Assembly: GCA_963815115.1 (NCBI GenBank)
Contig: CAWFFN010000008.1
Location: forward strand, 128,001 to 192,000
Direction of reading: 5' to 3'
Source of the DNA: an uncultured delta proteobacterium
Lineage (GTDB): Bacteria > Desulfobacterota > Binatia > DP-6
Length of the DNA stretch: 64,000 nt
Shown here: positions 8,246 through 59,467 of the stretch, in pieces
Numbering within the stretch: position 1 is the first letter of the stretch
Layout of the letters: each line of letters opens with the position of its first letter
Translations under genes and position numbers: made by a program
Notes under the pieces: model-generated
Seen by the model: only the letters and a program-made list of their open reading frames with translations
The model's database searches: none
What the model was told of the DNA's origin: nothing

Positions 8246-8255
8246 GCGTGCGCCC

Positions 8256-11790
<3,535 letters not shown>

Positions 11791-11849
11791 CGAAGCGCGC
11801 TATTGTTTCCGCGAGCCCCGCGAGGGTCAAGTGCGGGGAGGCTCCGTCC

Positions 11850-20064: not shown

Positions 20065-20134
20065 GGGCAGCCTATAGCGAAAGTCGGTCCGCGCGACCAC
20101 CCGCGAGTGCGCGCCGGCGGGCGAGCGGCGCGGA

Positions 20135-21661: not shown

Positions 21662-21755
21662 GGAACGCGACCCTAGCCAACGGAACCGAGCGGCGCAATC
21701 CACGACGATGCGGTCGGAGTTTGAACCGCCACTGCCACTTTGCTAACCGCGTTGC

Positions 21756-25101: not shown

Positions 25102-25264
25102 CGCGGGCGTTTCTCAATCGCCGTGAGGGTCGGGCGATCAACCCGAGAATGGAATCGGTGCACGCCTTCCCCCGCTTCCCGGTGCCGGGTCAGGCTGCCT
25201 CGCCCGTCGCCACATCACCCCGGATGATTGCCGTCCGCACACGGTAGCACTACGCGCATCAAAC

Positions 25265-27075: not shown

Positions 27076-27086
27076 GAGCGGGGCCG

Positions 27087-37280: not shown

Positions 37281-38516
37281 ATGTTCCTCGCTCCTGGCCA
37301 GGCCGCGGAGGTCCGCGAGCGCTTCGGCACCCCGTGCTACGTCTACGACCGGCGGACGCTCGAGAGCGCGGCGCGCACCGCCCTCGCCTTCCCGGCCCCG
37401 TTCGGCTTCACCCTGCGCTACGCGATGAAGGCCAACCCGAACGCCGCCATCCTGCGCATCTTCCGCGCCTTCGGGCTGCACCTCGACGCGTCGAGCGACC
37501 ACGAGGTGGAGCGCGCGCTGCGCGTCGGCGTGCCGGGCGGCACCATCCAGCTCACCTCGCAGATGCCGTCGCGCCGGCTGGAGGAATTCGTGGCGCGCGG
37601 CGTGCGCTACAACGCCTGCTCGCTGCACCAGCTCGAGCGCTTCGGCCAGGCGTTCCCGGGCCGCGACGTGACCATCCGCGTCAACCCGGGCCTGGGCAGC
37701 GGCTCGACCAACCGGACCAACACCGGCGGCCCGGGCTCCAGCTTCGGCATCTGGCACGAGGCCCTGGACGAGGCCAAGGCCGCTGCCGCCCGCCACGGTC
37801 TCCGGGTGAGCGGGCTGCACACCCACATCGGCTCCGGCACCGATCCGGCGGTGTGGAAGCGCGTGGCACGCATGAGCCTCGACATCGCGGCGCGCCTGCC
37901 GGACGTCGCCACGCTCAACCTCGGCGGCGGCTTCAAGGTGGCGCGCGTCGCCGAGGAGCGCTCCACCGACCTGGCGGACATCGGTACGCACGTCCGCCAG
38001 GAGCTGCTCGAGTTCCGCGATCGCAGCGGCCGGACGCTCCACCTGGAGATCGAGCCCGGCACGTATCTCGTCGCCAACGCCGGCTGCATCGTCGCCACCT
38101 GCATCGACGTCGCCGATACCGGCGCGGAGGGCTACCGCTTCGCGAAGCTCGATACCGGCATGACGGAGGTCACGCGCCCCTCGCTGTACGGCGCGCAGCA
38201 TCCGATCGACGTGCTCGCCGAGCGCGAGAGCGCCCGGGTCGTCTTCGTCGGACCGTGCTGCGAGTCGGGAGACGTGCTCACCCCGGCGCCCGGCGACCCG
38301 GAGGCGCTGGCGCCACGGCTGGTGCCGCGCCCGGCGATCGGTGACCTCGTCCTGATCGGCGGCGCCGGCGCCTACTGCGCCGCCATGTCCACCATCAACT
38401 ACAACTCGTACCCCCAGGCTCCCGAGGTGATGCGCGAGCTCGACGGCTCGCTGCGGCTCGTGCGGCGCCGCCAGACGCTCGAGCAGCTGCTCGCCAGCGA
38501 GGTGGTCGACGATTAG
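37281..38516 (+). CDS. lysA: Diaminopimelate decarboxylase
   Basis: FGTPCYVYD, YAMKAN (PLP Lys), HTHIGSG, NLGGG, EPG, GPCCESGD, GAY...NYNS. Confidence 0.9.
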   Translation: MFLAPGQAAEVRERFGTPCYVYDRRTLESAARTALAFPAPFGFTLRYAMKANPNAAILRIFRAFGLHLDASSDHEVERALRVGVPGGTIQLTSQMPSRRLEEFVARGVRYNACSLHQLERFGQAFPGRDVTIRVNPGLGSGSTNRTNTGGPGSSFGIWHEALDEAKAAAARHGLRVSGLHTHIGSGTDPAVWKRVARMSLDIAARLPDVATLNLGGGFKVARVAEERSTDLADIGTHVRQELLEFRDRSGRTLHLEIEPGTYLVANAGCIVATCIDVADTGAEGYRFAKLDTGMTEVTRPSLYGAQHPIDVLAERESARVVFVGPCCESGDVLTPAPGDPEALAPRLVPRPAIGDLVLIGGAGAYCAAMSTINYNSYPQAPEVMRELDGSLRLVRRRQTLEQLLASEVVDD

Positions 38517-38520
38517 CAGC

Positions 38521-38892
38521 TCCCGGCACGCTCCGGCCCGCCGGGGCAGCTTTGCGGCGCGCACCGGGACCGCCACGACGGCCTCGGGACGGGTCCGGCG
38601 GGCGACGGCGCGTGCACTCTGCGCCGGCCATTTCCCGGGCGATCCGCTGCTCCCCGGGGCCGCCCTCGTGGCCCTCATGGCCGAGCTCGGTGCGACGCTC
38701 GGCGGCCCGCGTGCCCGGCTGGTGGCGGTCGAGCGCAGCGTCTTCCGCCGTCGCGTCGGTCCCCATGCCGGCATCGTCGTCAGTGCCCGCCGGGTGCGGG
38801 CCGTGAAGAGGGGATTCAGCGTCCACGCCACCGTGACGGGCAGGACCGACGTCGCGGCGTGGGCGATCCTGCGCTTCGAGGATGCGCGGTGA
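38521..38892 (+). CDS. FabA/FabZ-like hotdog dehydratase subunit (ApeI-like); start codon not identifiable
   Basis: The reading frame contains CAGHFPGDPLLPG upstream of the first GTG/ATG; stop overlaps the next gene (GTGA). Confidence 0.6.
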   Translation, partial: SRHAPARRGSFAARTGTATTASGRVRRATARALCAGHFPGDPLLPGAALVALMAELGATLGGPRARLVAVERSVFRRRVGPHAGIVVSARRVRAVKRGFSVHATVTGRTDVAAWAILRFEDAR

Positions 38893-39281
38893 CGCTTCCG
38901 GCGCCCGGCGTCATGCTGAGACACCGGCCGCCGGCCCTGCTCCTGGGGACGGTCGACGCCCTCGTGGACCGCACGCTGGCCTGCACGGGGATCGACGCGG
39001 GGCGCTGGCCGTGGCCTCGCCTCCTGGAAGGCACCGCGCAGACGGCCGGACTGCTCGCGGGGCTTCAGCCCGGGGGCCCGGGCCGCGATGCGGTGATCGC
39101 CGAGTACCGCGACGTCTCTCTCGGCGTCGAGCGCCATCGCGGGCGCGTCCGCTTCGAGGCACGCCTCGAGCGCCGGCTGGCGCACTTCTGGCGCTGTCGC
39201 TGCGAGGCCCTCGCGGCCGACGGCCGCGTCCTGCTCGCGTCCCGGGTCACCCTGGCCCGCGCGCCGCAGCGCGAGGCGTGA
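38889..39281 (+). CDS. Hotdog-fold dehydratase subunit (ApeP-like)
   Basis: RHRPPALLLG (compare PHRxPxLLxD), LLEGTAQTAG. Confidence 0.7.
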   Translation: MTLPAPGVMLRHRPPALLLGTVDALVDRTLACTGIDAGRWPWPRLLEGTAQTAGLLAGLQPGGPGRDAVIAEYRDVSLGVERHRGRVRFEARLERRLAHFWRCRCEALAADGRVLLASRVTLARAPQREA

Positions 39282-39283
39282 GC

Positions 39284-40456
39284 ATGGCCTCGTTCGCCGT
39301 CGAGCCGCTCGACCCGCGCGCCTACGAGCGCCTCGCGGCCGCGGGTCTGGCGCCGGATCCCTTCAACCCGGCGCAGCATCGCAGCTGCGAGCTGGTGGAG
39401 CGCTACGCCGTCGACACGGCGCTCGACCTGTGCAGCCGGCTGGGCGTCCTCGAGCTGCTCCACGCGCCGCGCTCCGTCCAGGCGCTGTGCGCGGCGCGCG
39501 GCTTCCTGCCGGCCTTCGAGCGACCGCTGCGCTGGCTGCTCGAGCGTCTCGTGGCGGCGGACGTGCTCGCGCGCGCCGGTACGAGCTACGAGCTCTCCGG
39601 ACCACCCCGGGAGCCGGCGCTCGCGGCGCTGCGCGCGGAGGCGCTGGCGGACGACCCGTCGTATGCGCCCGCCTACGACCTGCTCGACGCCGTGGCGGCG
39701 CTCTACCCCGGCGTCGCCCGGGGCGAGGTGCAGGCCGAGCGCGCGCTGTTCCTCCGCGCCCGTCTCTGGGCGGCCTACTTCGACAACGCGAACGGGTACT
39801 ACGCGCTGAGCAATCGGGTGGCCGCGCGCGCGGCGGCGGTCCGGCTCGGCAGCGGCGGCCAGGTGCTCGAGGTCGGCTCGGGCCTCGGCAGCGCCACGGA
39901 CGCGCTCCTCGCCGAGCTGCGGGCACGCGGCGCGCTCGGGCTGGTGACCGCCTTTCGTGCGACCGAGCCAGCGCTCTTCTTCCGCCGGCGCGCCCAACGG
40001 ACGCTCGAGCAGTCGTGGCCCGACGTCGCGCTCACCTTCGATGCCCTCGACGTCAACCGGCCGTGGGCGGCGCAGGGCGTCGAGCCGGGAACGTATGCGC
40101 TCGTCTGGGGCGTCAACGTGTTCCATCTCGCCCGTCACCTCGACGACGCGCTCCGCGAAGCCCGCGCCGCGCTCGTCCCTGGCGGCTGGCTCGTCGTCGG
40201 CGAGGGCATGCGACCCGGGCCCGGCGTCCCGGTCGGCGCCGAGCTGCCCTTCCAGCTCCTGGACAGCTTTCACGACGTCGTGCTCGATCCCGCCCTGCGA
40301 CCGACGTCGGGGTTCCTCACTGCCGAGCTGTGGCAGGATGCGCTCCGGCGCGCGGGCTTCGACGACGTCGCGCTCTTCCCCGACGTGATCGAGCTGCGCG
40401 AGAGCTATCCCGGATTCGTCGCGGCGGCGGCCTGCGGCCGGCGCCCGCGGCGCTGA
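39284..40456 (+). CDS. Standalone class I SAM methyltransferase resembling PKS C-methyltransferase domains
   Basis: VLEVGSGLGSAT, LDVNRPWAAQG, YALVWGVNVFH, LVPGGWLVVGE, FLTAELWQDALRRAGF, plus a helical N-terminal subdomain. Confidence 0.82.
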   Translation: MASFAVEPLDPRAYERLAAAGLAPDPFNPAQHRSCELVERYAVDTALDLCSRLGVLELLHAPRSVQALCAARGFLPAFERPLRWLLERLVAADVLARAGTSYELSGPPREPALAALRAEALADDPSYAPAYDLLDAVAALYPGVARGEVQAERALFLRARLWAAYFDNANGYYALSNRVAARAAAVRLGSGGQVLEVGSGLGSATDALLAELRARGALGLVTAFRATEPALFFRRRAQRTLEQSWPDVALTFDALDVNRPWAAQGVEPGTYALVWGVNVFHLARHLDDALREARAALVPGGWLVVGEGMRPGPGVPVGAELPFQLLDSFHDVVLDPALRPTSGFLTAELWQDALRRAGFDDVALFPDVIELRESYPGFVAAAACGRRPRR

Positions 40457-40510
40457 CGCGGAACCTGCCGATTCCTTGAATCCGCCGCGAGAGGTCTGTA
40501 CACGCCCGCC

Positions 40511-41266
40511 GTGCGTGCCTCCCGACACCGCGCCGCTGGATGGCTGGCAGCCGTCGTCGTCCTGCTTGGCTGCGGCTCGACCTCGACGACGAAGCCCGGT
40601 GCCCCGGCGGGCATGGTCTACATCCCGCCTGGCGAGTTTCTCATGGGCAGCGCCGCGGACGATCCGGCGGTCTACGACTGGGAGCGGCCGCACGAGCAGC
40701 CGCAGCACCCCGTCTGGGTCGACGGCTTCTACATCGACGACCACGAGGTCACCAACGCCGACTTCGAGCGCGTCACGCCCACCCACCCGCGCAGCAAGCT
40801 GTCGCCCTGCGACGACTGCCCGGTGACCGACGTGTCGTGGTGGGCGGCGGAGTCGTACTGCGCGAGGCAGACGCCTGCCCGGCGGCTGCCCACCGAGGCC
40901 GAATGGGAGAAGGCAGCGAAGGGCGGCCTCCCGGCGTGGGAGCCCGAACCCTTCGAGGAGTACGTGTGGGACGCCAAGAACACGATCAGCCGGGCGCAGC
41001 CCGTGGCGACCAGGAAGGCGAACCCGTACGGGCTCCACGACATGCTCGGGAACGTGCGCGAGTGGACCGCCGACTGGTACGGGCCGGACTACTACCAGCA
41101 GCGGGAATACACGAACCCGAAGGGACCGCCCGGGGGCATACGTCGGGTGGAGCGCGGAGGAGCGTTCTTCCTGCCCAGGCGCGGCGTGACCACGACGATC
41201 CGCTACAACCATCCACCCCACTTCACGCTGTACTTCCTGGGCTTCCGCTGTGCGATGACGCCGTAG
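40511..41266 (+). CDS. SUMF1/EgtB/PvdO (FGE-sulfatase fold) lipoprotein
   Basis: LLGC lipobox, IPPGEFLMGS, EVTN, RLPTEAEWEKAA, NPYGLHDMLGNVREW, GFRC. Confidence 0.9.
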   Translation: MRASRHRAAGWLAAVVVLLGCGSTSTTKPGAPAGMVYIPPGEFLMGSAADDPAVYDWERPHEQPQHPVWVDGFYIDDHEVTNADFERVTPTHPRSKLSPCDDCPVTDVSWWAAESYCARQTPARRLPTEAEWEKAAKGGLPAWEPEPFEEYVWDAKNTISRAQPVATRKANPYGLHDMLGNVREWTADWYGPDYYQQREYTNPKGPPGGIRRVERGGAFFLPRRGVTTTIRYNHPPHFTLYFLGFRCAMTP

Positions 41267-41273
41267 CGCTCGA

Positions 41274-42083
41274 TCAGGCGGGCGGCCCACCTGCGAGCGC
41301 CCGGACGACGGCGAGCGCGTCGCACAGCGCCCGCACGTCGTGCGTGCGCACGTAGTCGGCTCCCTGCGCGGCCGCCCACAGCTCGGCAGCGAGGGTCGCC
41401 GGCGCGCGCCCGCTGACGTCGCGACCCGTGACCGCGCCGAGGAACGATTTGCGCGAGACCGAGATCCACACCGGCCGGCGGAAGCGCGCCTTCAGCTCTC
41501 CGAGTGCGCGCAAGACCACCAGAGAAGCCTCCGGGTCGCCGCCGAGGAAATAGCCCATGCCGGGGTCGAGGACGACGCGCTCCAGGGACACCCCCGTCGA
41601 CTCGAGCGCGGCCAGCCGCGCGGCAAAGAAGTCCCCGATCCGCTCGACGAGCCCGCGCGGGTCGACGGGGTCACGGGTCGCGGTCGGCGCGCGCTGGACG
41701 GAGTGCATCACCACCAGGCGGCAATGAGCCGGCGCCAGGTCCGGGTAGATGGCGGGGTCGGGAAATCCGCGGATGTCGTTCAGGTAGGCGACGCCGCGCG
41801 CGAGCGCGTAGCGCTGCGTCTCGACCTGCCAGGAATCCACCGACACGGCCACGCCGCGGGGGAGGAGCGCGTCGAGGACGGGCTCGAGCCGACGGATCTC
41901 CTCGGCCGAGCTGACGGGAGCGGCGTCCGGGTTGCTGGCCGCGGGACCGACGTCGACCACCGCGGCCCCGTCCGTGACCAGACGCAGGGCATGGGCGACG
42001 GCCTCCTCGGTCTCGCCGAATCGGCCACCGTCCGAGAACGAGTCCGGGGTGAGGTTGACGATGCCGACGACCTGCGGATGCAT
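41274..42083 (-). CDS. folP: Dihydropteroate synthase of the Sul1/Sul2-like clade
   Basis: GIVNLTPDSFSDGG, GPAASNPDAAPVS, YALARGVAYLNDIRGFPD, LVVMHSVQ, LDPGMGYFLG, SVSRKSFL, ADYVRTH; 269 aa. Confidence 0.92.
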   Translation of the reverse strand: MHPQVVGIVNLTPDSFSDGGRFGETEEAVAHALRLVTDGAAVVDVGPAASNPDAAPVSSAEEIRRLEPVLDALLPRGVAVSVDSWQVETQRYALARGVAYLNDIRGFPDPAIYPDLAPAHCRLVVMHSVQRAPTATRDPVDPRGLVERIGDFFAARLAALESTGVSLERVVLDPGMGYFLGGDPEASLVVLRALGELKARFRRPVWISVSRKSFLGAVTGRDVSGRAPATLAAELWAAAQGADYVRTHDVRALCDALAVVRALAGGPPA

Positions 42084-42486
42084 GGCCCGCGTCAGCGACG
42101 CGGATCCATCGTGTACCACACGCAGGAGATTCGGCGGAGGCGCCGGCCAGGGTCGCGGGGGAGGGACCGACCAGCGCCTCCGCACGGGGATCTGACTGCC
42201 ATCCATGGGCTGTCAGCGCGGCGGAGGTGCTCGTTCTCGGATTCGCAATGATCGCTTGCCCATCTCTTCTCCGCTCTCCGCGCTGCCACGAGACGGCGTA
42301 CGTGACCACATGCAGCGCGCGTGCCGGACCGCTACGTCGGACCCCATCGCCGCGCGAGTCACGCATCCTCGCGGCTTTTCCCCGTTTGCGGCGCGTGCCC
42401 CGGGGCGGCGGCTCCGCCGGCGGCGGGGCACCCTGCCCTGGCCTGGGGCGGAATGCCGCGCCCCGCACCGCGTCAGACGGCGCGAT

Positions 42487-43482
42487 CTACGCGGGGCGTC
42501 TCGCGGCGACGGACGTCCGGATGGCGCGCGCCAGGAGATAGCCGAGTCCCGGCATGACCCAGAGGAGCTCCCGCAGCCGGACCGCGAGTCCGACCGCGAA
42601 GCCCACGTCGGCGGGGTATCCCAGCATGGAGAACAGCCAGAGCTGGCTCCCCTCGAGCACCCCGATGCCGGCGGGGACCGGCATCGAGTGCACCGCCCCG
42701 GTGGCGAAGATCGCCGCCACCACGGCCAGCGGACCCGAGGGCAACCCGAACGCCGACAGCAGGAGCCAGTACTCCAGCAGGACGAGCAGGTGGCCCGCCA
42801 CGCCGAGCGCGAAGGCCAGTCCCACGCGGCGCGGCTGCGCGGCCAGGGCCACCACGTCGCCCTCCGCGGCCCCGATCGTTCCCATGCGCGCACGGATCGG
42901 CCCGAACCGATCGAGCCCGAAGCCGCTCGCGACCGCGGTCACCACTCCCTCACCCCGTCGCAGGCGCCGGATCATGAACCCGACGCCGACGACCAGCCCG
43001 ACCGCGGCCGCACACAGCGTGAAGGCGGCCCCGCGCAGCGCCGGCACCCCCTGCTGCACCAGGACGCTGCCGAAGACGGCGGCGAAGACCGAGCCGCTTC
43101 CCATGTCGAGGGTGCGGTCGACGGCGACGCTGGCGATCGCCTGCGGCGTCGGGACCCCGTGCTGGGCGGCGAGATAGGCGCGCAGGGGCTCGCCGCCCAT
43201 CCGCCCGCTCGGGATCAGCGTCGACAGGCTGTGCCCCGCGGCCCGGCAGGCCATGAGGGTGCCGAGGGCCACGTGCGACCCGAGCGCCGTCAGCAGCACA
43301 CCCCAGCGCCGGCCGCAGGTCGCGAACTCCGCCGCGATGACGAGCACGAACGCCGCCAGCAGCGGCGCCGACGGCGCCCGCGCGAGCAGTGACAGGGCGG
43401 GCTCACCGTAGCGGTGCAGCGCCCACGCGAGCGCGGCGGTGCCCACCACCAGATTGGTTCCGAGGACGACGGTGGCGCGCAC
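42487..43482 (-). CDS. Lysylphosphatidylglycerol synthase TM domain (UPF0104, flippase-like) protein
   Basis: RRWGVLL, PSGRMGGEPLRAY, SVAVDR, PAGIGVLE. Confidence 0.85.
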   Translation of the reverse strand: MRATVVLGTNLVVGTAALAWALHRYGEPALSLLARAPSAPLLAAFVLVIAAEFATCGRRWGVLLTALGSHVALGTLMACRAAGHSLSTLIPSGRMGGEPLRAYLAAQHGVPTPQAIASVAVDRTLDMGSGSVFAAVFGSVLVQQGVPALRGAAFTLCAAAVGLVVGVGFMIRRLRRGEGVVTAVASGFGLDRFGPIRARMGTIGAAEGDVVALAAQPRRVGLAFALGVAGHLLVLLEYWLLLSAFGLPSGPLAVVAAIFATGAVHSMPVPAGIGVLEGSQLWLFSMLGYPADVGFAVGLAVRLRELLWVMPGLGYLLARAIRTSVAARRPA

Positions 43483-43495
43483 GCCGGGCGCGGCC

Positions 43496-44667
43496 TCAGG
43501 ACGAGCCGGCGGGCTCGAAGCAGTCGATCGTCGCGCCGGCCTCGAGGTACTCGCCCAGGATCGCCTCGATGGGCCGGTGGTCGAGGACCTCGAACTGGCT
43601 CGCCTCGAGGTCGAAGCGCGCGCCGCTCTCGGTGTACGGCGCGACGCCCGGAGAGCCGGGCGTGAGGACCCCGATCACCGGCACGAGCCGCCGTTGCATG
43701 CGTGCGGGCTCGCGCGTCGAGATCACCACCTTGGCCCGCGGTGCGGCGAGCGCCAGGACGGTGACCAGGCGGCACAGCCGATCGTCGTCGACGCCGGCGG
43801 GATACGGCGTCCCGCTCGCCCGGCGCAGCCGCGGCAAGCTGACGTAGACCTCCATGCCGCGCGCCTCGAGGTGGCGGACGTGCGCGAGCAGGGCGAGCAG
43901 CTCCCAGGCGACGTCGGAGTTGAGGCCGAGGAGCACTCCGGGGTTCGCCACCCACATGCCGGCATCGCAGGCGCGATCGAAGTTCAGGAGCCGCCGCGCG
44001 TAGTCGCTGCGGGGGTTCTCCGGGTCCGTGCCCATGAAGCGTCCGTAGACCTCCGGCTGGTAGGTCTCCTGGAAGGTGCACATGGTGAGGCGCGGCGCGA
44101 CGCGGCCGTCCCCGATCCTGCGCGACCCCGTCGAGGAGGAGGTCGTAGTCGGGGGCGTCGAGCGAGCCGATGTTGACCAGGACGTGGCGGAAGCCGCGCG
44201 CCAGCGCCGCCCGCAGCGCCGCCGCGGCGCGCTCGATCATCGCCTGCCGTCGTGCGCCGTGGCGGTACTCGCCGCTCAGGATGGCCACGGCGCGCAAGCC
44301 ACGACGATGGAGAATGTCGAGCTGGGATTCCACCGTGGTCTCGTCCGCCGACTCCCGGACCAGCTCGGCATTGGAGCGCCGCATGCCGCACATCAGGCAC
44401 GCCGCGTCGCACTCGTTGGTGATGTAGAGCGGAGAGAAGGTCTCGAAGCGGAGGCGATCGTCGCTGCGTCGCGCACGGGCGAGCGCGATCAGCTCGTCGG
44501 TGCCGACGTCGGTCGGCGAGGAACAGCGTCGCGGCCGCCTCGTCATCGAGCGTCGCTCCCGCGCGCGCGAGGTCGGCGATCGCCCTGCCCTCTCCTGCCT
44601 CGGCACGCGCGGTCGCGCGTGCGCGCATCGCGCCGAGCGTCTCGGTCTCGAGGCGGAACCAGGCCAT
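43496..44667 (-). CDS. NosL-like radical SAM aromatic amino acid lyase (3-methyl-2-indolic acid synthase family); two apparent frameshifts (~44510, ~44115)
   Basis: ETFSPLYITNECDAACLMCGMRRSN, LSGEY, NIGSLD, TMCTFQETY, NPGVLLGL, SLPRLR, ISTREP, PGSPGVAPY, SQF, matching recalled NosL/NocL motifs in order. Confidence 0.8.
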
Positions 44668-44682
44668 GGCGGCGGACGTATA

Positions 44683-46078
44683 TCAGCGCGTTCGCGAGCG
44701 CTCCAGGGTGCGGGCGAGACGCCGCCGCCGCGCGGCCGTGCGGAACGTCCGTCCGAGCCAGCGCCAGGTCTCGCCCGCCGTGGGCCGCGGCCACTCGATC
44801 ATCCCCTGCATCAGCGTGAGCACGTGACGCCCGGGCCGCGTCCAGTCGCTCAGCACGATCGGCTTGTAGACGTGCGGACTGCGTCCGAGGAGCTCGACGT
44901 CGAGCAGCTCGTCACGCGGCACGGTCTCGATCTCGACGGGCAGGTCGCCGAGTGCCGCATGCAGCGCCGCCGAGGCCTCGGCGGTGGCGCTGCGGCCATC
45001 CGTCTCGACGCGCACCAGGAGCCGATCCGGCAGCACGACGGCGAGGAAAACGGCGCTGTCGAGCGCGTCCGCCGCCGCGGCCGCGGCGTCCACGAGCAGG
45101 TGCGCGTGCAGGCGCCGGCCCGCCAGCGTCACGACCTCACCGGCCCGGCCGAGGACCACGATGCCCGGCCGCGTGTCGCCGCAGGCGCACGGGGGCAGTC
45201 GCCGTACCACGTCGCCCGTGTCGAGCCGGATGAGCGGGCTGCCCTCGACGCCGAGGGTGGTCACGACGAGTCGGCCCTCGTCGCCGTCAGCCGACCGGAC
45301 TCCCCGTCGCGTCGAGCACCTCGCAGTACGCCAGGGAGGTCTCGAGATGCAGGGTCCCGGCCGGGCAGGAGGTACCGAGCAGCATGGTCTCGGTCGAGCC
45401 GTAGAGCTCGATCACCTCGACGTTCCAGGTCCGGGCGAGGCGCCGCCTGAGGGCCGGCGGAAGCGCGGACCCGCCGAGGAGAAAGGTGTCGAAGGCAAGC
45501 TCCCGGCGCACGTCGAGGCCGCGGCCGCGCGCGATCTCGCCGAGCACGACCGGCTCGAGGGGGAGACCGGCGAGCACCTGCGCGCCGGTGCGGTGTGCCA
45601 GCTCGAGCGCGCGGGGAAAGGGCACGTCCCAGTTGATGTTCCCCGCGGGGATCGACACGCCGCCGCCCTGCTGCGCGACGAGCTGGATCAGGTGCGCGGG
45701 AGCGGCCATGAACGGGAACCGGTTCAGGATGATGCGGCCCGGAGCGAAGACCGTCGGGTGCGCGGCGCGCAGTGCGCGCGCGTCACGCTCGAAGTCCGCG
45801 GTGGTGAGCCAGGTCGAGTTGGTGCCGCCGCTGGTCCCCGACGATTCACCGTAGTGCGCGACCTCGCCGAGCGGCACGGCGCGCGTGCCGTGCGGGCCGA
45901 CCCGTTGCAGATCGGCGCGCGTGGTGATCGGCAGGGCACGCAAGTCCTCCAGGGACCGGAGGCGTACGGTGGCGAGGCGCTCGGCGTAGAGGATGCTGCC
46001 CCGGGCACGATCGATGGTGGCCTCGAGAGCGGTCAGATCGCCCTCGGCCGCCGCCTGCGTGGAGAGGACCTGCGACAC
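44683..46078 (-). CDS. Phenylacetate-CoA ligase (PaaK)-family ANL adenylating enzyme; one apparent frameshift near 45290
   Basis: LPITTRADL, ESSGTSG, ELYGSTE, LVVTTL...PLIRLDTGD, CACG, LGR. Confidence 0.85.
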
Positions 46079-46156
46079 TGCCGCCGCCAGCCTGTGTCGG
46101 ATGCGAGCCGCGAGTCAAGGACGAGATTGACTCCCGCGGGCGCCGCGACTACAGGG

Positions 46157-46324
46157 CGAGCCGAGACTCCGACTCGGCTCGGGACGCGGAGCGAGAATGA
46201 AGCGCGATGACCCGTGCGCACGTCGTACCCGCGCCGGCTTCGCCGGCCGCGGCATGGCGTGCGCGCGATCCACCGACCGCCACGTCCTCGCCCCGCTTTC
46301 GACCCGAGACGGAGTCTCCCGTCG
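46157..46324. repeat. REP-like palindromic repeat cluster, copy A
   Basis: Hairpins CGAGCCGAG-N7-CTCGGCTCG (46157-46181) and CGACCCGAGAC-GGA-GTCTCCCGTCG (46300-46324); 31-mer 46229-46259 is the exact reverse complement of 53347-53377. Confidence 0.7.
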
Positions 46325-48029
46325 CGCCCCCTGGCGTATCGCGTGCGTCCCGGGCGTGCTCGCGCTGCTGCTCGCCGCCCCGAATCTGGCGGCGGCCGGC
46401 TCCTGGGAGGTGACGCGCAAGACCGTCATCGACCCGCTCAACTCGGAGCTCCACCGCCATCTTCCCACCTTCGTCCGCCAGCGCGACCTGGACGGCATCA
46501 TCGGGCTCTACGCGGTGGACACGGGCGGCGGGCTCACCTGGGACGGCGCGCAGCCGGCCTACCCCGAGCGCGAGGAGCGGATGCTGCGCTGGGCCGGTCC
46601 CGCGGGTGCCGAGCGGATCAAGGAGCGCTGGGAGCACCTCCTCGCCCTCCTCCCGACCATCGAGAAGGCGGAGCTGCGCATCGGGCGGGTCGGCTGGCGC
46701 GACGCCGACGAGCGCGGCTACCCCGCGGGCGTCCGTCTCCTGGTGCGCGGGACCTGCGCCGATGGCGCCCGCTGTCAGCTCGACCAGCACATGACGCTGC
46801 GGGTGCGAGCCGAGGGCAACCGCTGGGTGATCACCAACGAGGACGTCACGGCACGCGAGCTGGTCTCCCGCATCGACCCGCGCTTCGCGCTCGTCACCGA
46901 GGCTGCCGGGATCGCGAACGTCCACGCGAGCGGGCCGTCGCCCGCCTTCCAGCTCTTCGGCGGCGCCGACCAGAGCCCGGTGCAGGCCAGCGGCGGCAGC
47001 GCCGTCGCCGACGTCGACGGCGACGGCTGCGAGGACGTCCTCCTCGCCGGATCGCCGGAGGCGGCGCTCTACCACAACAACTGCGACGGCACCTTCACCG
47101 ACGTGACCGCCGCGTCCGGCCTGCCCCGTCCCTATCCCGCCGCCGCCACCGGCGTCGTGTTCTTCGACTACGACGACGACGGCGACCCCGATCTCTTCGT
47201 CGCCGCGGTCGTGGGTGGCGACCGCCTGTTCCGCAACGACGGCGGCGGCCACTTCACGGAGGTCACGGCGGCGGCCGCCATCCCGGCGTCGCGCTGGACG
47301 AGCATGCCCGCCGTGGCCGACTACGACCGTGACGGCTTCCTGGACCTCTACCTGGTGCACATGGGCGATCACGAGAAGACCGTTCCCGAGCCGAGCTACG
47401 CCGCCCGCAACGGCGTCCGGAGCGTGCTGCTGCACAACGAGCGCAACGGCACCTTCCGCGACGTCACCGCACACGCGGGCGTCGGCTTCCACGGCTGGGG
47501 CCTCGCGGGCGCCTGGGGGGACTACGACGGGGATGGCTGGCCCGATCTCTACGTCGCCAACGAGTTCGGCTCGAACGCGCTCTATCGCAACCGCCACGAC
47601 GGCACCTTCGAGGAGGTCGCGGCGCGCGCCGGCGTGACCGACGGCGGCGCGGGCATGAGCGTCGCGTGGGGCGACTACGACGGCGACGGCGACCTCGACC
47701 TCTACGTCTCGAACATGCACGCCAACTCGGGCTGGGCGCTGTTCCATCCCGACTTCCCCCTGCCCATTCCCACCGCCTTCCGCGTGCTCGGGCTCCTCAC
47801 GTCCGAGGTGCGACGGCGAGGCGAGGCGATCACCGATCGGCTGCTGCGCGGCAGCACCCTGTTCCGCAACGACGGCGGCGGTCGCTTCACCGACGTCAGC
47901 GACGCCGCCGGCGTGCGCGACGCGCAATGGGGCTGGTCGGCGGAGTTCCTGGACTACGACAACGACGGCACCCTGGACATCTACGCCACCAACGGGTTCA
48001 TCTCCGGACCGATCCTGGACGATGTGTGA
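46197..48029 (+). CDS. FG-GAP/VCBS repeat (CRTAC1-like) secreted protein, N-terminal part up to an in-frame TGA
   Basis: Repeated DxDxDGxxD Ca-binding loops with LFRN.G.G.F.DV; hydrophobic signal VLALLLAAP; true start uncertain (may be downstream of the repeat). Confidence 0.88.
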   Translation: MKRDDPCARRTRAGFAGRGMACARSTDRHVLAPLSTRDGVSRRAPWRIACVPGVLALLLAAPNLAAAGSWEVTRKTVIDPLNSELHRHLPTFVRQRDLDGIIGLYAVDTGGGLTWDGAQPAYPEREERMLRWAGPAGAERIKERWEHLLALLPTIEKAELRIGRVGWRDADERGYPAGVRLLVRGTCADGARCQLDQHMTLRVRAEGNRWVITNEDVTARELVSRIDPRFALVTEAAGIANVHASGPSPAFQLFGGADQSPVQASGGSAVADVDGDGCEDVLLAGSPEAALYHNNCDGTFTDVTAASGLPRPYPAAATGVVFFDYDDDGDPDLFVAAVVGGDRLFRNDGGGHFTEVTAAAAIPASRWTSMPAVADYDRDGFLDLYLVHMGDHEKTVPEPSYAARNGVRSVLLHNERNGTFRDVTAHAGVGFHGWGLAGAWGDYDGDGWPDLYVANEFGSNALYRNRHDGTFEEVAARAGVTDGGAGMSVAWGDYDGDGDLDLYVSNMHANSGWALFHPDFPLPIPTAFRVLGLLTSEVRRRGEAITDRLLRGSTLFRNDGGGRFTDVSDAAGVRDAQWGWSAEFLDYDNDGTLDIYATNGFISGPILDDV

Positions 48030-48596
48030 ATGGACATGTTCGAGGGCGTCGGTCGACGCTCAGAGCACAGCACCGGGCGGTTCCTCAACATCGGCCAGCA
48101 CAGCCTGAACGGCTACGAGCGCAAGGTGCTCTTCCGCAACAACGGCGACGGCACCTTCACCGACGTGGCCTACGTCAACGCCGCCGACCGCGTCGAGGAC
48201 GGCCGCGGCCTCTCGATCGCCGACCTCGATCGCGACGGCGAGCTCGACCTCGTGCTCCGCAACTACCACCAGCCCGCCCAGGTCCTGCGCAACCAGGGCG
48301 GGCCGGCGCACTGGCTGCAGCTCGTGCTCGTCGGCACGCGCTCGAACCGCGATGCCGTGGGCGCACGGGTTCGGCTCCGCACCGGGCAGCACTGGCAGAC
48401 CCGTGAGGTCCATGCCGGCTCCGCCTACCTGTCCCAGCAGAGCCTGGTGCAGCACTTCGGCCTCGGTGACGCGCGGCGGGCCGACGAGGTGCAGATCGCG
48501 TGGCCGTCCGGCGCGCGCAGCACGCTCGGCCCGCTCGATGGCGATCGCCGGTGGCGGGTCGTCGAGGACGGCGGCGTGGAGCCCGTCGGTCGCTAG
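48030..48596 (+). CDS. ASPIC/UnbV C-terminal part, in frame with and directly abutting the upstream ORF
   Basis: SLNGYERKVLFRN, DGRGLSIADLDRDGELD, SNRDAVGARV, YLSQ...HFGLG, WPSG. Confidence 0.88.
   Translation: MDMFEGVGRRSEHSTGRFLNIGQHSLNGYERKVLFRNNGDGTFTDVAYVNAADRVEDGRGLSIADLDRDGELDLVLRNYHQPAQVLRNQGGPAHWLQLVLVGTRSNRDAVGARVRLRTGQHWQTREVHAGSAYLSQQSLVQHFGLGDARRADEVQIAWPSGARSTLGPLDGDRRWRVVEDGGVEPVGR
48037..48067 (+). promoter_or_regulatory. Candidate bacterial SECIS element
   Basis: TGTTC/GAGCA lower stem, GGGCGTC/GACGCTC upper stem, GGTC apical loop starting 21 nt after TGA 48027-48029. Confidence 0.55.
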
Positions 48597-48639: not shown

Positions 48640-48668
48640 TTGACACCCTCCGGTGCCGCCGCCATCAT
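48640..48668 (+). promoter_or_regulatory. Putative sigma70 promoter of radical SAM gene #3
   Basis: TTGACA, 17 bp, CATCAT; 14 bp upstream of ATG 48683. Confidence 0.5.
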
Positions 48669-48682
48669 CGCGCGGCCGCACG

Positions 48683-50044
48683 ATGCGCATCCACCTGATC
48701 TCGCCGACGCACTACCTGCCCGACGGGCGCCTCCACAAGACGACGCGCTACTGGACGAGCGGTACCACGCTGCCGTACCTGAAGGCGCTCACGCCGCCGG
48801 GGCACGAGGTCTCGTTCACCGACGAGCTGATGCGCGACCTCGACGTCGAAGGCATCGCGCGCGACGCCGACGTGGTCGGGCTCACCGCCATGGGGCCGCA
48901 GATCCGCCGCGCCTACGACCTGGCGGACGATTTCCGCGCCCGCGGCAAGCGCGTCGTGCTCGGCGGGACCTGGGTGACGCTCACCCCCGAGGAGTCGCTG
49001 CGCCATGCCGACGCGGTGGTCGCCGGCGAGGCCGAGGAGGTCTGGCCGCGGGTGCTCGCCGATCTCGCGGCTGGCCGCACCGGAAGCATCTATCGCGCCG
49101 CCCGCTGGCACGACCTGCGCGGCCTGCCCGCGATCGATCCCTGGACGCTGCCGCTCTTGAAGGCCGACGCCTTCCGGCGCAGCTGGCTCTACCGCATGTA
49201 CTTCTTCTGGCCGGTCTTCTTCTCCCGCGGCTGCCCGCATCCCTGCGAGTACTGCGCGGTGCAGACGTACTACCAGCGCACCTTCCGCACGCGCCCGGTT
49301 GACGAGTTCGTCGCCGACGTGCAGCGGATGACCGCCTTCGGCGCCCGGCGCTTTCTCTTCATGGACGACAATCCCTTCGCGCACCCCGAGGCCGCGAAGG
49401 AGATGCTGCGCGCCCTCGTCCCCCTCCGCATCCAGTGGGTGAGTCAGGCCACCATCAACGTGGCGCGCGACCCCGAGCTGCTCGATCTGGTGGCGCGTTC
49501 CGGCGCGCGCGTGCTCTCCATCGGCTTCGAGAGCCTGTCCGAGGAGAGCCTGGCGTCGGTCTCGAAGCAGTTCAATCGCCCGAGCCGCTTCAAGGACGAT
49601 CTCGCCCGGCTGCGCGCGCGCGGCATCCAGGTGATCGCGCTGCTCATGGTCGGACTGGACGGCGACACGCTCGAGACCTTCCCCGGCATGCTGCGCTGGC
49701 TCGACGACAACAAGATCAGCTTCCTGAAGCTGTTCACGCCGGCGCCCTATCCCGGCACGAAATTCCATGCCGACATGGACGCCGCCGGCCGGCTTCTCGG
49801 CGCCGACTGGGGCCGCTACGACTACGGCAGCCCGAACGTACGCCCGCTGCACATGACCACGGACGAGATGCTCGACGGCTTCCGCTCCGTCTACTCGGGC
49901 TTCTACTCCGTGCGGAGCATGCTGCGGCGATTCGTGCCGCCGCCACGACGCCACCTCCTCGAGTCGCTCGCGATGCTGGTCGCGAACGCCAAGGTGCACG
50001 GCTATCTCCGGCGCAACCCCGAAGCCTGGGGCACCATCTCGTAA
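48683..50044 (+). CDS. Cobalamin-binding radical SAM protein #3
   Basis: VGLTAM, VLGG, GEAE, SRGCPHPCEYC, FMDDN, IGFES, PYPGT. Confidence 0.9.
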   Translation: MRIHLISPTHYLPDGRLHKTTRYWTSGTTLPYLKALTPPGHEVSFTDELMRDLDVEGIARDADVVGLTAMGPQIRRAYDLADDFRARGKRVVLGGTWVTLTPEESLRHADAVVAGEAEEVWPRVLADLAAGRTGSIYRAARWHDLRGLPAIDPWTLPLLKADAFRRSWLYRMYFFWPVFFSRGCPHPCEYCAVQTYYQRTFRTRPVDEFVADVQRMTAFGARRFLFMDDNPFAHPEAAKEMLRALVPLRIQWVSQATINVARDPELLDLVARSGARVLSIGFESLSEESLASVSKQFNRPSRFKDDLARLRARGIQVIALLMVGLDGDTLETFPGMLRWLDDNKISFLKLFTPAPYPGTKFHADMDAAGRLLGADWGRYDYGSPNVRPLHMTTDEMLDGFRSVYSGFYSVRSMLRRFVPPPRRHLLESLAMLVANAKVHGYLRRNPEAWGTIS

Positions 50045-50958
50045 GCGGCCGCGCCCTCCTCGACGGCGGCAGCCGTCTCGCCCCAGACCTCCTCGAACAT
50101 GAGCCACTGCGACGGGCGCTCGCGCACGATCCCCTCGTAGAGCCGGACGGTCGCGACCAGCGCCGCGACGCTGTCGGCCGGCGTGCGCGGATCGAAGCGG
50201 GCCGCGACACGCAGCTCGTAGCGCCGGATGCCGGTGCGCACGGCGAACACCGGCACGATGGGCGCGCGCGCGACCCGCGCCACCGCGAAGGGGCCGAGCT
50301 GGAACCGCGTCGGCCGGCCGCAGAAGTCTACCTCGTGGCTGCCGCGCTTGGGCCCCCACGGCTCGATCTGCATGCCGACGATCTCGTGGCGGCGGAGCGC
50401 GTGCAACGCGGGCAGGCCGGCGAACAGCGAGCGGTCCGAGTAGAGCACGGTGAACCCGTGCCGCGTCCGCATCGAGTGCAGGAAGTCGTGCACCGTGGGG
50501 TTCTGCTCGTGCGCCGTCACCAGGTTGACCGGGCGACCGAGCCGGTTGAGGACGCGCGCCCCGATCTCCCAGGAGCCGAAGTGGCCGGTGAGCACGACCA
50601 GGCCGCGGCCCTCCGCCAGGGCGCTCTCGAAGAGCTCGCGCCCGTCGATGGTGAGCTCGACCGGGCGCGGATGAGGGCCCCATTGCTCCATCCCCTCTGT
50701 CATGGAGCGGGCGAGCTCGGCGAAGACGCGGTAGGCGTCCCAGCGCTCGCGGAGCCAGCTCCGCGGTCCCTGGACCTGGCGCTGGTTGTGGAGGACGCTC
50801 TCGCGCCGCGACCGGGCGACGCCGAAGAGGATGGCCGCGATCGCCGGCGGCGCGCCGCGCTTCCACCACTCCGGGCCATAGACGCAACCCAGTTCCGCGA
50901 AGCGGCGCCACGCCCCGCCGTCGAAGCGCAAGGCGGCTCGAAGGCGCCCCGGGTCCAT
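50002..50958 (-). CDS. Lysophospholipid/lipid A lauroyl-type acyltransferase, paralog 2
   Basis: TGHFGSWE, DFCGRPTRF, RERPSQWL. Confidence 0.87.
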   Translation of the reverse strand: MDPGRLRAALRFDGGAWRRFAELGCVYGPEWWKRGAPPAIAAILFGVARSRRESVLHNQRQVQGPRSWLRERWDAYRVFAELARSMTEGMEQWGPHPRPVELTIDGRELFESALAEGRGLVVLTGHFGSWEIGARVLNRLGRPVNLVTAHEQNPTVHDFLHSMRTRHGFTVLYSDRSLFAGLPALHALRRHEIVGMQIEPWGPKRGSHEVDFCGRPTRFQLGPFAVARVARAPIVPVFAVRTGIRRYELRVAARFDPRTPADSVAALVATVRLYEGIVRERPSQWLMFEEVWGETAAAVEEGAAAYEMVPQASGLRRR

Positions 50959-51036
50959 CCGGCTGACTTATCGGAGCGCTGGAGGCGCCTCAAGATACGT
51001 TGTCACGGGGCGCGAAGCGGCGTAGGGCTCTCCCCC

Positions 51037-53385
51037 ATGGACACGATCGCGACGCACTATCGCACCTGCTCCCTGTGCGAGGCCACCTGCGGGCTCGAGA
51101 TCCGGACTCGCGGCCCGGAGATCGTGAGCATCCGGGGCGACGAGGCCGACCCGTTCAGCCGCGGCTACCTGTGCCCCAAGGGGCCGGCGCTGAAGCACCT
51201 GCACGACGATCCCGATCGCCTGCGCGAGCCGATGATCCGTCGCGGCGCCACCTGGGAGCGGGTCGGCTGGGGCGAGGCGTTCGCCGAGATCGACCGCCGG
51301 CTGCCGCCCATCATCCGCACGCACGGGCGCGACGCGGTCGCCGTCTATCTCGGCAACCCGTCGGCGCACCTCCTCTCCGCTCATGCTGTACCCGCGCGCG
51401 CTGCTGCGCGCCTCGGCACGCGCAACCTCTTCTCGGCCAGCACCGTCGACCAGATGCCGAAGCAGGTCGAGCGCGGGCTCATGTTCGGCACGCGCGCTGA
51501 GCGTGCCGGTGCCCGACCTCGACCGCACCGTCGTTCCTGCTCGTCCTCGGCGCCGATCCCGTGGTGTCGAACGGCAGCCTGATGACGGCGCCCGACGTGA
51601 AGGCGCGCCTGCGCGCCATCCGCGCACCGCGGCGGCAAGCTGGTGGTCATCGACCCGCGCCGCTCGCGCACGGCGGAGGAGGCCGACGAGCACCACTTCA
51701 TCCGCCCGGGCACCGATGCGCTGTTCCTCTTCGCCCTCGTCCACACGCTGTTCGCGGAGAACCTCGTCCGGCTCGGCCGCCTCGCACCGCACGTGGCCGG
51801 CGTCGAGGCGGTGGAGCGCGCTGGCGCGCGAGTTCACGCCCGGAGGCCGTCGGCGCCGCCTGCGGCATCCCGGCGGACACCATCCGCCGGCATCGCACGC
51901 GCGCTCGCCGCGCGCCGAGTCGGCCGCGGTCTACGGTCGCGTCGGCACGTGCCAGCAGGAGTTCGGCACCGCTGGCGAGCTGGCTCGTCGACGTGCTGAA
52001 CGTGCTCACCGGCAACCTCGACCGGCCCGGCGGCGCGATGTTCACCAAGGCGGCGGCCGGCGCCAGCAACACGCGCGGCGAGCCCGGACGCGGCAAGGGC
52101 GTCCGCTTCGGACGGCGCGACGAGCCGCGTGCGCGGGCTGCCCGAGGTCTTCGGCGAGCTGCCGGTCGGCTGCCTCGCCGAGGAGATCGAGACGCCGGGC
52201 GAGGGCCAGATCCGGGCGCTCATCACCATCGCCGGCAATCCGGTGCTCAGCACGCCGAACGGCGCGCGGCTGTCGGCCGCGCTCGGCTCGCTCGAGTTCA
52301 TGGTGAGCCTCGACATCTACCTGAACGAGACGACGCGCCACGCGGACGTGATCCTGCCGTCGCTCTCGCCGCTCGAGTCGTCGCACTACGACCTCGGCGC
52401 TCTGGCAGCTCGCCATCCGCAACTACGCAAACTACTCGGCGCCCGTCTTTTCTCCGCCGTCGGGTCGGCCGACCGACTGGGAGACCGTCCTGCGGCTGAC
52501 CGGCATCGTCATGGGTCAGGGACCCGACGCCGACACGGACGCGCTCGACGACTTCGTCGCCCTCCAGCAGGTGGAGAGCGCCGTCGGGGCGGCGGGCTCC
52601 TGCGTGCAGGGACGCGCACCGGCCGAGCTGATGGCCGCGCTCGCCCCGCGACGCGGCCCGGAGCGCCTGCTCGACCTGATGCTGCGCACCGGGCCGTACG
52701 GCGACGCATTCGGCGCGCGGCCCGACGGGCTCTCCCTGCGGCGCTCGAGGCGACCCCGCACGGGATCGACCTGGGCGCGCTCGCGCCGCGCATCCCCGAG
52801 GTCCTGCGCACCCGCTCGGGCATAGATCGAGCTGGCGCCGCGCCGAGATCACCGCCGACGTCCCCCGGCTGCGCTCGCGTCTCACGCGGCCGGAGGGCGG
52901 CATCGACGCTCGTCGGCCGCCGGGACCTGCGCTCCAACAACTCCTGGATGCACAACATCGAGCCGCTCGTGCGCGGCGAGACCGCGCTGCACCCTGTGGG
53001 TGCATCCCGACGACGCCGCGCGCCTCGGGCTCGCCGACGGCGCCGCCGGCGCGCGTGCGCTCGCGCGCCGGGCGCCTCGACGTGCCGGTGGAGGTCACCG
53101 ACGCGATCATGCCCGGCGTGGTGAGCATGCCGCACGGCTGGGGCCACGACGCGCCCGGGATGCGCGTTGCGCGTCGCGTCCGCCAACGCCGGCGTGAACA
53201 GCAATCTGCTGGCCGACGAGCTGGCGATGGATCCGCTGTCCGGCAACGCGGTGCTGAACGGCATCCCCGTAAGCGTGTGTCGAGCCGAGACCTCGTCTCG
53301 GCTCGAAGGGGAAGGCGAGCGTGTGGCGTCCGGTCCCTCAGGCGACCGCCATGCCGCGGCCGGCGAAGCCGGCGCGGCAAAATAG
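51037..53385 (+). CDS. Molybdopterin (bis-MGD) oxidoreductase with an N-terminal 4Fe-4S cluster; many apparent frameshifts
   Basis: TCSLCEATCG...CPKG, SASTVDQMPK, VIDPRRSRTA, GNLDRPGG, GNPVLSTP, RSNNSWMHN, HPDDA, PHGWGH, DPLSGNAVLNGIPV across several frames. Confidence 0.85.
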
Positions 53386-56230: not shown

Positions 56231-56238
56231 ACCGACTC

Positions 56239-56499
56239 CTACGGCTGGCGCTCCGCAACGATGAAATCGACCAGCGACCGCACCGAGGCAAAGGCTCGCT
56301 TGCCCACCTCCTCGTCCGGAATGGAGACCCGGAATCGATCCTCCACCAGCACGACGAGCTCGAGCGCGTCGATCGAATCGAGACCCAGCCCGTCGCCGAA
56401 GATGGGCGAGTCCTCGGGGATGTCGCTCGGCGGACGGTCGAGCCGAAGCCCGGTCACCAGGAGCTGCTTCACCTCCGCGGCGAGCGCGTCGCGATCCAT
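56239..56499 (-). CDS. Acyl carrier protein (aryl-polyene-type)
   Basis: IFGDGLGLDSIDALEL phosphopantetheine motif; GAGG RBS. Confidence 0.93.
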   Translation of the reverse strand: MDRDALAAEVKQLLVTGLRLDRPPSDIPEDSPIFGDGLGLDSIDALELVVLVEDRFRVSIPDEEVGKRAFASVRSLVDFIVAERQP

Positions 56500-59412: not shown

Positions 59413-59467
59413 CGCAACTTAGCCCAGGACGTCGGGTGGTGCACGACGCTGGCCGGCGGCGGCGACG

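Follow-up and report, generated by a model that had tools for sequence, protein, structure and literature searches.

A NosL-like radical SAM enzyme and a PaaK-type ligase encoded in a conserved type II fatty acid/polyketide synthase-like gene cluster of Binatia

Positions 42487–46078 of the 64,000-nucleotide stretch of DNA analyzed here (the window; G+C content 72%), which comes from an uncultured member of the Binatia, form a minus-strand operon that is intact once three single-base insertions are discounted. It encodes a PaaK-type ligase, a radical S-adenosylmethionine (SAM) protein of the NosL clade and an HpnL-like membrane protein, and belongs to a gene cluster whose conservation extends over Candidatus Binatia and certain other lineages. 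In the sequence and fold tests run, the radical SAM protein is NosL-like, yet it lies outside the MIA (3-methyl-2-indolic acid) synthase equivalog. Quite possibly, and this is the reading tentatively preferred here by analogy with nosiheptide biosynthesis, its product is an aromatic acid that the ligase activates and that ketosynthase (KS) and chain length factor (CLF) proteins extend into an envelope lipid. The cluster suggests that an uncultured Binatia soil bacterium has a pathway, not yet described, to an aromatic lipid or pigment. In the order of transcription, the operon comprises:

44683–46078, minus strand: PaaK-type adenylate-forming ligase, in two frames (45290–46078 and 44686–45288), with Pfam, NCBIfam and PDB matches
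44512–44667, minus strand: radical SAM protein, piece A, N-terminal helical part, with an ATG at 44667; aligns with residues 1–52 of intact orthologs
44109–44510, minus strand: radical SAM protein, piece B, radical SAM core with CxxxCxxC as CDAACLMC (TIGR04158 94.2 bits; PF04055)
43499–44122, stop codon 43496–43498, minus strand: radical SAM protein, piece C, C-terminal half with TMCTFQETY, TREP and PGSPGVAPY (BATS domain; TIGR04158 161.6 bits)
42487–43482, minus strand: HpnL-like/LPG_synthase_TM membrane protein (PF03706 104.6 bits; TIGR03476 HpnL 79.9 bits; TIGR00374 65 bits)

The genes are tightly packed, with 15 nt between the ligase stop and the radical SAM start and 13 nt between the radical SAM stop and the start of the membrane protein. 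An original prediction, made from the letters of the window alone, had described a radical SAM protein split by two frameshifts and carrying NosL/NocL motifs in order once its frames are joined. The three-frame translation agrees with this on both counts, and the ligase is likewise divided over two frames. Read on the minus strand, the motifs of the radical SAM protein follow one another as PLYITNECDAACLMCGMRRSN, NIGS, TMCTFQETY, NPGVLLGL, TREP, PGSPGVAPY and SQF, and the same motifs are found in the NosL chains 6htk and 4r33.

Within the ThiH/HydG/NosL group, the radical SAM protein is placed by its sequence on the NosL side. The TIGR04158 scores of pieces B and C exceed those of the same pieces on ThiH (47.7 and 92.1 bits) and HydG (22.5 and 80.1 bits), and an intact ortholog from the same genus (L012:955-2121) scores 258.7 bits on TIGR04158, 136.2 on ThiH and 93.2 on HydG, where the cutoffs are 400 bits for TIGR04158, the MIA synthase equivalog, and 380 bits for ThiH (TIGR02351). 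Against PDB sequences this ortholog reaches 245 bits with NosL, as compared with 90.5 with ThiH and 87.3 with HydG. Its AlphaFold2 model (pLDDT 84) was matched best by Foldseek to 4r33, 6hto and 6htk, with a template modelling (TM) score of 0.87 and 39% identity to NosL, whereas HydG and ThiH reach a TM score of 0.75. Identity to NosL ranges from 39 to 45%.

A phmmer search of the whole protein library returned 673 representatives at E ≤1e-3, 52 of them at E ≤1e-30. When 20 full-length representatives were scanned on TIGR04158, P0131 alone passed the cutoff (573.5 bits); the others comprised three members of the window's radical SAM family (about 252 bits), ten sub-threshold NosL-like proteins (184–354 bits) and six ThiH/HydG-like ones. 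A 47-row tree was built from full-length picks among the best 150 phmmer matches, three sequences from a clustered search, the query and eight locus translations, with fragments below about 300 aa and most low-ranked rows omitted and P0145 trimmed to its C-terminal domain. In this tree, NosL, the NosL-like rows and the window's family form one 26-row clade (SH-aLRT 100, stem 1.42) apart from ThiH and HydG, which is the grouping the original prediction had anticipated. The family itself is large, with at least 892 clusters at 90% identity (E ≤1e-10, among the candidates scored), mostly metagenomic, and a protein atlas search returned similar clusters labeled Myxococcota or Acidobacteriota. In one tree row, P0145 (711 aa), a SPASM-type radical SAM domain at the N-terminus (mycofactocin-maturase-like, 95 bits) is naturally fused to a NosL-like domain at the C-terminus (TIGR04158 246 bits).

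The substrate pocket conveys the same picture. As described in one published account, the primary markers separating tyrosine from tryptophan enzymes are an Arg six residues past the conserved substrate-binding Arg (ThiH R306) and a one-residue insertion after strand beta-8, and Glu158 of ThiH is also noted (PMC9046217). In the alignment, the equivalent of NosL Arg323 is conserved in the window's family, and the position six residues further on is Gln in all seven family rows and in the NosL equivalog but Arg in all five ThiH/HydG rows. The beta-8 loop of the family is of NosL length, and the ThiH Glu158 position is occupied by Asn, as in NosL. Judged from these positions, the pocket is NosL-like and free of tyrosine-type markers. 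To the original prediction, the pocket residues that it named appeared to be retained, and for Arg323 this stands; it had pointed to the Ser of PGS, however, and the residue concerned, NosL Ser340, is the first Ser of ISPGSP (6htk_A numbering). At this position the window and its close clade carry Thr (GVLTPGSP), while the divergent clade keeps Ser; the hydroxyl is preserved. In NosL itself, the S340A mutant is reported to accept 1-methyl-Trp (PMC4916742).

The adjoining ligase had been taken for a co-oriented aryl-CoA-ligase type enzyme, an assignment supported by its domain, motifs and PDB matches. It contains an AMP-binding domain (PF00501), and SSGTSG, YGSTE and TGD occur in its translation. 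Its best NCBIfam matches, all below cutoff, are BagE/FevW (131 bits), the DVU_1553 family (108), FlxY (97) and PaaK (94); its scores stay under the cutoffs of the specific PaaK equivalogs (646 and 700 bits). Among PDB entries, the best are 9s3l, labeled a phenylacetate-CoA ligase (160 bits), AjiA1 (127 bits), whose role we take to be in benzoxazole biosynthesis, and 6siw, labeled PaaK-like (115 bits). By these criteria, the protein is a PaaK-type member of the ANL superfamily that resembles aryl-acid activators.

The association of the two genes was followed across 57 loci drawn from a species-representative collection, most of which are titled Candidatus Binatia, delta proteobacterium or Myxococcota. 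Immediately upstream of the radical SAM gene stands the ligase in 33 of the 57, or in 26 of the 41 loci with at least 1.5 kb of upstream sequence, and the HpnL-like membrane protein follows immediately downstream in 35. In 47 of the 57, the locus includes a ligase or a KS. The original prediction was to fall if homologs never co-occurred with KS/acyl carrier protein (ACP) genes; in other genomes they do accompany the ligase and KS genes. Gene order is kept in six relatives belonging to several genera. Among 40 relatives, an ortholog of the radical SAM protein occurs in 20 and of the ligase in 21, with both in 19; the three mismatches (G007, G021 and G022) are at contig ends, and G001, G014 and G024 lack both. 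Other genes of the cluster recur near the radical SAM gene as well: homologs of a B12-binding radical SAM protein of the TIGR04072 type in 34 of 57 loci, of a halogenase-like protein in 23, of a ketoreductase (KR) in 20 and of a 4-methylideneimidazole-5-one (MIO)-type ammonia-lyase in 12, the lyase homologs within 10 kb including distant ones of 38–44% identity. In a divergent subclade (50–55% identity), the radical SAM gene is convergent on an operon of ligase, KS, CLF, B12-binding protein, KR, KS and CLF.

Neighboring genes of the window were identified with Pfam and NCBIfam, and KS and CLF calls were made from an active-site alignment. Those of the cluster are:

58228–59418, minus strand: ketosynthase KS1, with Cys/His/His present
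57269–58297, minus strand: CLF-like partner 1, without the active-site Cys
56514–57482, minus strand: FabG-type KR (FabG 258 bits; FlxB_rubin_SDR 231 bits)
56260–56442, minus strand: ACP with an LGLDSID motif (PF00550 40.1 bits)
55013–56302, minus strand: ketosynthase KS2, with Cys/His/His present
53895–55142, minus strand: CLF-like partner 2, without the active-site Cys
50005–50967, minus strand: LpxL/HtrB-family acyltransferase (PF03279 86.6 bits)
48653–50044, plus strand: B12-binding radical SAM protein, divergent from the operon and conserved in relatives
38825–40453, plus strand: SAM methyltransferase with an O-methyltransferase dimerization domain, syntenic beside the membrane protein in relatives
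37281–38513, plus strand: pyridoxal phosphate (PLP)-dependent decarboxylase, LysA-like (lysA 265 bits, cutoff 297.9)
27081–28505, plus strand: B12-binding radical SAM protein of the ‘lipid biosynthesis/ladderane’ type (TIGR04072 341.8 bits, cutoff 360)
25750–27066, plus strand: flavin-dependent halogenase-like protein with GGGPAG and WFWYIP (PF04820 152 bits; CmlS 359 bits, cutoff 900)
24184–25110, minus strand: second LpxL-family acyltransferase
20141–21667, minus strand: MIO-type aromatic amino-acid ammonia-lyase, histidine ammonia-lyase (HAL)-like (PF00221 579 bits; FlxA_rubin_TAL 393 bits)
18616–20229, minus strand: third B12-binding radical SAM protein
17939–18601, minus strand: family 2 glycosyltransferase (GT2)

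As read from these sequences, the type II fatty acid synthase (FAS)/polyketide synthase (PKS) set is complete for KS with Cys/His/His, Cys-less CLF, discrete ACP and KR. The original prediction of KS, CLF and ACP genes nearby is confirmed, with two KS/CLF pairs. The next-best models for the B12-binding protein at 27081–28505 are BzaD (169 bits) and tryptophan 2-C-methyltransferase (159 bits). Both of these enzymes methylate aromatic carbons, and the matches may hint at methylation of an aromatic ring.

Several observations concern the surroundings of this set. Divergent from the ligase, an FG-GAP/ASPIC-UnbV repeat protein is encoded at 46131–48593 on the plus strand, and since a homolog occupies the same place in many loci, including Myxococcota-labeled ones, it may belong to the cluster. 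Two blocks without counterparts in the syntenic regions of the six relatives interrupt the conserved cluster in the window genome: 28500–37300, with a cyclase-domain protein, an alkaline phosphatase and a sulfatase, and 40457–42212, with an FGE-type sulfatase-modifying enzyme and a DHPS-like pterin-binding protein. The DHPS-like gene (41277–42212) and the FGE gene (40457–41263) were considered as operon partners and rejected, as they appear in none of the 57 loci and in none of the six relatives’ neighborhoods. Elsewhere in the genome, at about 391794–396753 of contig C5, a second FAS-like locus places a FabZ/FabA-type dehydratase beside two PP-binding (ACP) matches; it may represent another aryl-polyene-like or lipid cluster.

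In nosiheptide biosynthesis, NosI adenylates MIA and loads it onto the carrier NosJ (PMC5585349), as the original prediction had stated. A pathway of similar logic can be proposed for the window. The radical SAM protein would take the amino hydrogen from L-tryptophan or a similar non-phenolic aromatic amino acid and, in the manner of NosL, fragment or rearrange it; the outcome would be an aromatic carboxylic acid, with an indole acid made from tryptophan as the simplest case. Adenylating this acid and loading it onto the ACP at 56260–56442 would fall to the ligase, mirroring NosL, NosI and NosJ, and the KS/CLF system would extend it. The B12-binding radical SAM proteins, the methyltransferase and the halogenase-like enzyme might tailor the product, which an LpxL-type acyltransferase would attach to a lipid and the HpnL-like protein would help to put into the envelope. 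This reading is favored because of the operon order, the co-occurrence of the genes and the NosL–NosI–NosJ precedent. An indole acid made by the radical SAM protein is a plausible candidate for the starter.

A number of findings weigh against it. The intact ortholog stays below the TIGR04158 equivalog cutoff (258.7 against 400 bits), and the window’s family (15 rows, support 99) is sister to, rather than nested in, an 11-row MIA synthase clade that contains the sole tree row passing this cutoff; substrate and product may therefore differ from those of NosL. In addition, the family has a specific six-residue insertion before TMCTFQE, and Thr stands at the position of NosL Ser340. Six of the 57 loci (L066, L067, L068, L071, L073 and L078), with flanks of 1.1–10 kb on each side, are without ligase or KS, and synteny inside a single bacterial family counts for little as evidence that genes are functionally linked. 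In L073, the radical SAM gene adjoins a SAM methyltransferase and a 4HBT-family thioesterase; FAD oxidoreductases, a methyltransferase of the ICMT/PEMT family and a PLP enzyme with an alanine-racemase fold are encoded further out in L071 and L073. Furthermore, the conserved MIO ammonia-lyase, the only one of the genome, could itself supply the substrate of the ligase, as FlxA does for FlxY in flexirubin biosynthesis. Lastly, no FabA/FabZ-type dehydratase was found in the window, and the only PF07977 matches of the genome, two in number, fall outside it, on contigs C5 and C7, with the search confined to this dehydratase family. The indolyl-polyene product that the original prediction had suggested is therefore unsupported as regards the polyene.

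The ammonia-lyase is also the starting point of the foremost alternative, which we consider rather unlikely. Following a flexirubin-type logic, the lyase would furnish an aryl-acrylic acid of the coumarate, cinnamate or urocanate type, the ligase, PaaK/FlxY-like, would activate it as the KS/CLF starter, and the radical SAM protein would not make the starter, instead supplying another aromatic unit (for instance, a head group or an ester partner) or tailoring an amino acid. The lyase is a clear family member that also scores on a flexirubin model (579 bits on PF00221, 393 on FlxA_rubin_TAL), as do the KR (231 bits on FlxB_rubin_SDR) and the ligase (97 bits on FlxY_rubin), although all flexirubin-model scores fall far under their cutoffs (700, 520 and 340). 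Its homologs lie within 10 kb of the radical SAM gene in the 12 loci counted above, distant ones included. It is the only Lyase_aromatic gene of the genome, and the sole urocanase match genome-wide is weak and partial (24.6 bits), making a role of the lyase in histidine catabolism unlikely. The motif of the lyase is less accommodating: it reads Ser-His in Binatia (NLVRSHA) and Phe-His in the Myxococcota-labeled loci L041, L045, L047, L049 and L053 (NLLRFHG), at a position that we take to be a substrate-selectivity switch, Ser-His presumably being HAL-like and His-Leu typical of tyrosine ammonia-lyase (TAL). The halogenase-like gene and the methyltransferase would suit the tailoring of an aryl head group, and in the divergent subclade it is the KS operon, not the radical SAM gene, that the ligase heads. 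In most loci, on the other hand, the ligase directly precedes the radical SAM gene, at a distance of about 15 nt, and the two co-occur.

It is decidedly unlikely that the radical SAM protein has another chemistry or substrate and no part in the KS/CLF pathway, its position reflecting inherited gene order or an envelope-lipid function shared with the HpnL-like protein. The sister-clade position and sub-threshold scores would fit such a view, as would the six loci without nearby ligase or KS, and one relative (G012) retains an ortholog of the TIGR04072-type B12-binding protein without an ortholog of either the radical SAM protein or the ligase. NosL, moreover, is described as catalytically promiscuous (PMC4916742). 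Against this, two distinct gene arrangements in divergent lineages both keep the radical SAM gene near ligase and KS, and the radical SAM protein and the ligase are jointly present or absent in the relatives.

Contigs from four public short-read runs were aligned onto window positions 43400–46200, where stretches without cover in runs X1, X3 and X5 are uninformative. The sole frame-changing differences in this interval are single-base omissions at exactly the three frame junctions:

44511: site 1, between pieces A and B of the radical SAM gene; one extra window base, absent from the run X2 contig
44121: site 2, between pieces B and C of the radical SAM gene; one extra window base, absent from the run X2 contig and from a 151-nt run X5 contig (2 mismatches)
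45294: site 3, in the ligase gene; one extra window base, absent from the run X2 contig

The likeness of these contigs to the window is about 96% for X2 and about 99% for X5 (site 44121). The frameshifts are probably assembly insertions with no biology behind them, because contigs of relatives lack the bases, intact radical SAM orthologs of 389–394 aa exist in relatives, and secA, a single-copy gene (window 8259–11826), is split too, aligning to its orthologs in up to seven alternating-frame pieces. The intact orthologs also answer the concern, raised with the original prediction, that real frameshifts might go along with a lack of any intact homolog. That both genes are true pseudogenes in the strain of the window is very improbable, even though three breaks fall within 2.6 kb while many neighboring genes are in a single frame, and X1, the best-matching run, has no coverage at the three sites. 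Each break consists of one extra base that closely similar contigs lack; argJ (window 7047–8290) is split over two frames, and a molybdopterin oxidoreductase (about 51037–52729) is frame-broken against its orthologs in the same way; multi-piece genes are found in other assemblies as well (loci L062, L076 and L080); and the G+C content at third codon positions remains high in every piece. As local indel errors are present in the window assembly, the reads should be consulted before anything in this genome is called a ‘pseudogene’.

A tyrosine lyase of the ThiH/HydG type, making dehydroglycine for thiamine or cleaving tyrosine otherwise, is barely credible: some homologs are automatically named ‘2-iminoacetate synthase’ and the radical SAM pieces are the only ThiH-family matches of the genome, but the ThiH score is 136 against a cutoff of 380 bits, the Arg six residues past the conserved Arg and the longer beta-8 loop are missing, and the tree sets the protein apart from both enzymes. 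Tyrosine binding by ThiH involves Thr299, Arg306, Ser318 and Ser321 together with a beta-bulge; in the window protein, Gln replaces Arg306 and the loop is shorter. Two ThiO matches in the genome exceed their cutoff, and ThiG lies on contig C5, a different contig; along with the sub-cutoff score and the absent tyrosine markers, this led us to reject a ThiH role. A thiopeptide role was rejected as well, on the ground that no YcaO was found across the genome, which is rated 100% complete (the control was positive in five genomes). The earlier statement that thiopeptide genes are missing thus holds genome-wide for YcaO; for the dehydratase it is weaker, since Lant_dehydr_N was not found in the genome but its control was silent.

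What the cluster offers beyond its individual genes is a large, conserved sister family of NosL that is linked, in an uncultured phylum, with an adenylating ligase and a lipid-type cluster of KS/CLF/ACP genes. In its widest form, which we regard as rather unlikely, the preferred reading would have a tryptophan-derived indole-carboxylate, made by the NosL-type lyase, serve Binatia and some other lineages of soil and sediment as the primer of a type II FAS/PKS, whose products would be envelope-anchored indolyl lipids or pigments, methylated and possibly halogenated. To our knowledge, the indolic-acid side ring of e-series thiopeptides is the one setting in which NosL-type chemistry has been described. 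If an indole-carboxylate primer were indeed made, a NosL-type enzyme would for the first time be known beyond thiopeptides, and KS/CLF systems would gain a new class of starter unit. The intact ortholog makes the aromatic-acid product of the radical SAM protein, and its role as a starter unit, a testable question. A literature search returned no report of a NosL-type lyase with a KS, aryl polyene or starter-unit cluster, and the main text of the Binatota genome paper, the supplements of which may hold cluster tables, does not mention polyene, flexirubin, radical SAM, ladderane, polyketide or tryptophan (PMC8262859).

Among known systems, NosL/NocL (TIGR04158; PDB 4R33, 6HTK) are closest to the radical SAM protein itself, sharing the fold (TM 0.87), 39–45% identity, motif order, CxxxCxxC and an adenylating enzyme encoded next door, and in the pocket the Arg323 equivalent, the Gln in place of the tyrosine-lyase Arg and the length of the beta-8 loop. 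They differ in that the window protein belongs to a sister clade (259 against 400 bits), with Thr at Ser340 and the six-residue insertion, and in that it is found in a type II FAS/PKS-like cluster of Binatia without YcaO, whereas NosL/NocL come from Actinobacteria. ThiH and HydG (PDB 7PD1, 4WCX, 4RTB) share the superfamily, the BATS domain and presumably the initiation of the reaction at the amino group, but they are more distant (90 and 87 bits; TM 0.75); the window protein has neither an equivalent of ThiH Arg306 nor the insertion after beta-8 that has been described (PMC9046217), carries Asn for Glu158, and occurs in a genome with ThiO.

The flexirubin and aryl polyene clusters resemble the window in their inventory, namely MIO lyase, PaaK-like ligase, KR, KS/CLF, ACP, LpxL-family acyltransferases, GT2, halogenase-like gene and methyltransferase, yet the window genes score far below the model cutoffs and a FabZ-type dehydratase is missing from the window. 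We know of no such cluster that includes the three or four B12-binding radical SAM proteins and the NosL-like radical SAM protein seen here. With NosI–NosJ, the window has in common a lyase gene beside an adenylate-forming enzyme and a phosphopantetheine carrier within the cluster (PMC5585349); in the window, the ligase is PaaK-type and the carrier, with KS/CLF genes on either side, a FAS-type ACP. Finally, the FASII clusters of the ‘ladderane type’ in Kuenenia and Desulfotalea (TIGR04072) share the TIGR04072-like B12-binding radical SAM protein (342 bits in the window), divergent FabF paralogs and a PaaK/F390-synthetase-like ligase, the last noted in both organisms; no ThiH/NosL-type enzyme is reported in the main text of that work, from which ThiH and tryptophan are absent (PMC2649909). 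The operon described here also offers a way into the function of ‘ladderane-type’ and aryl-polyene-like clusters, which are poorly understood and widely flagged by genome-mining tools.

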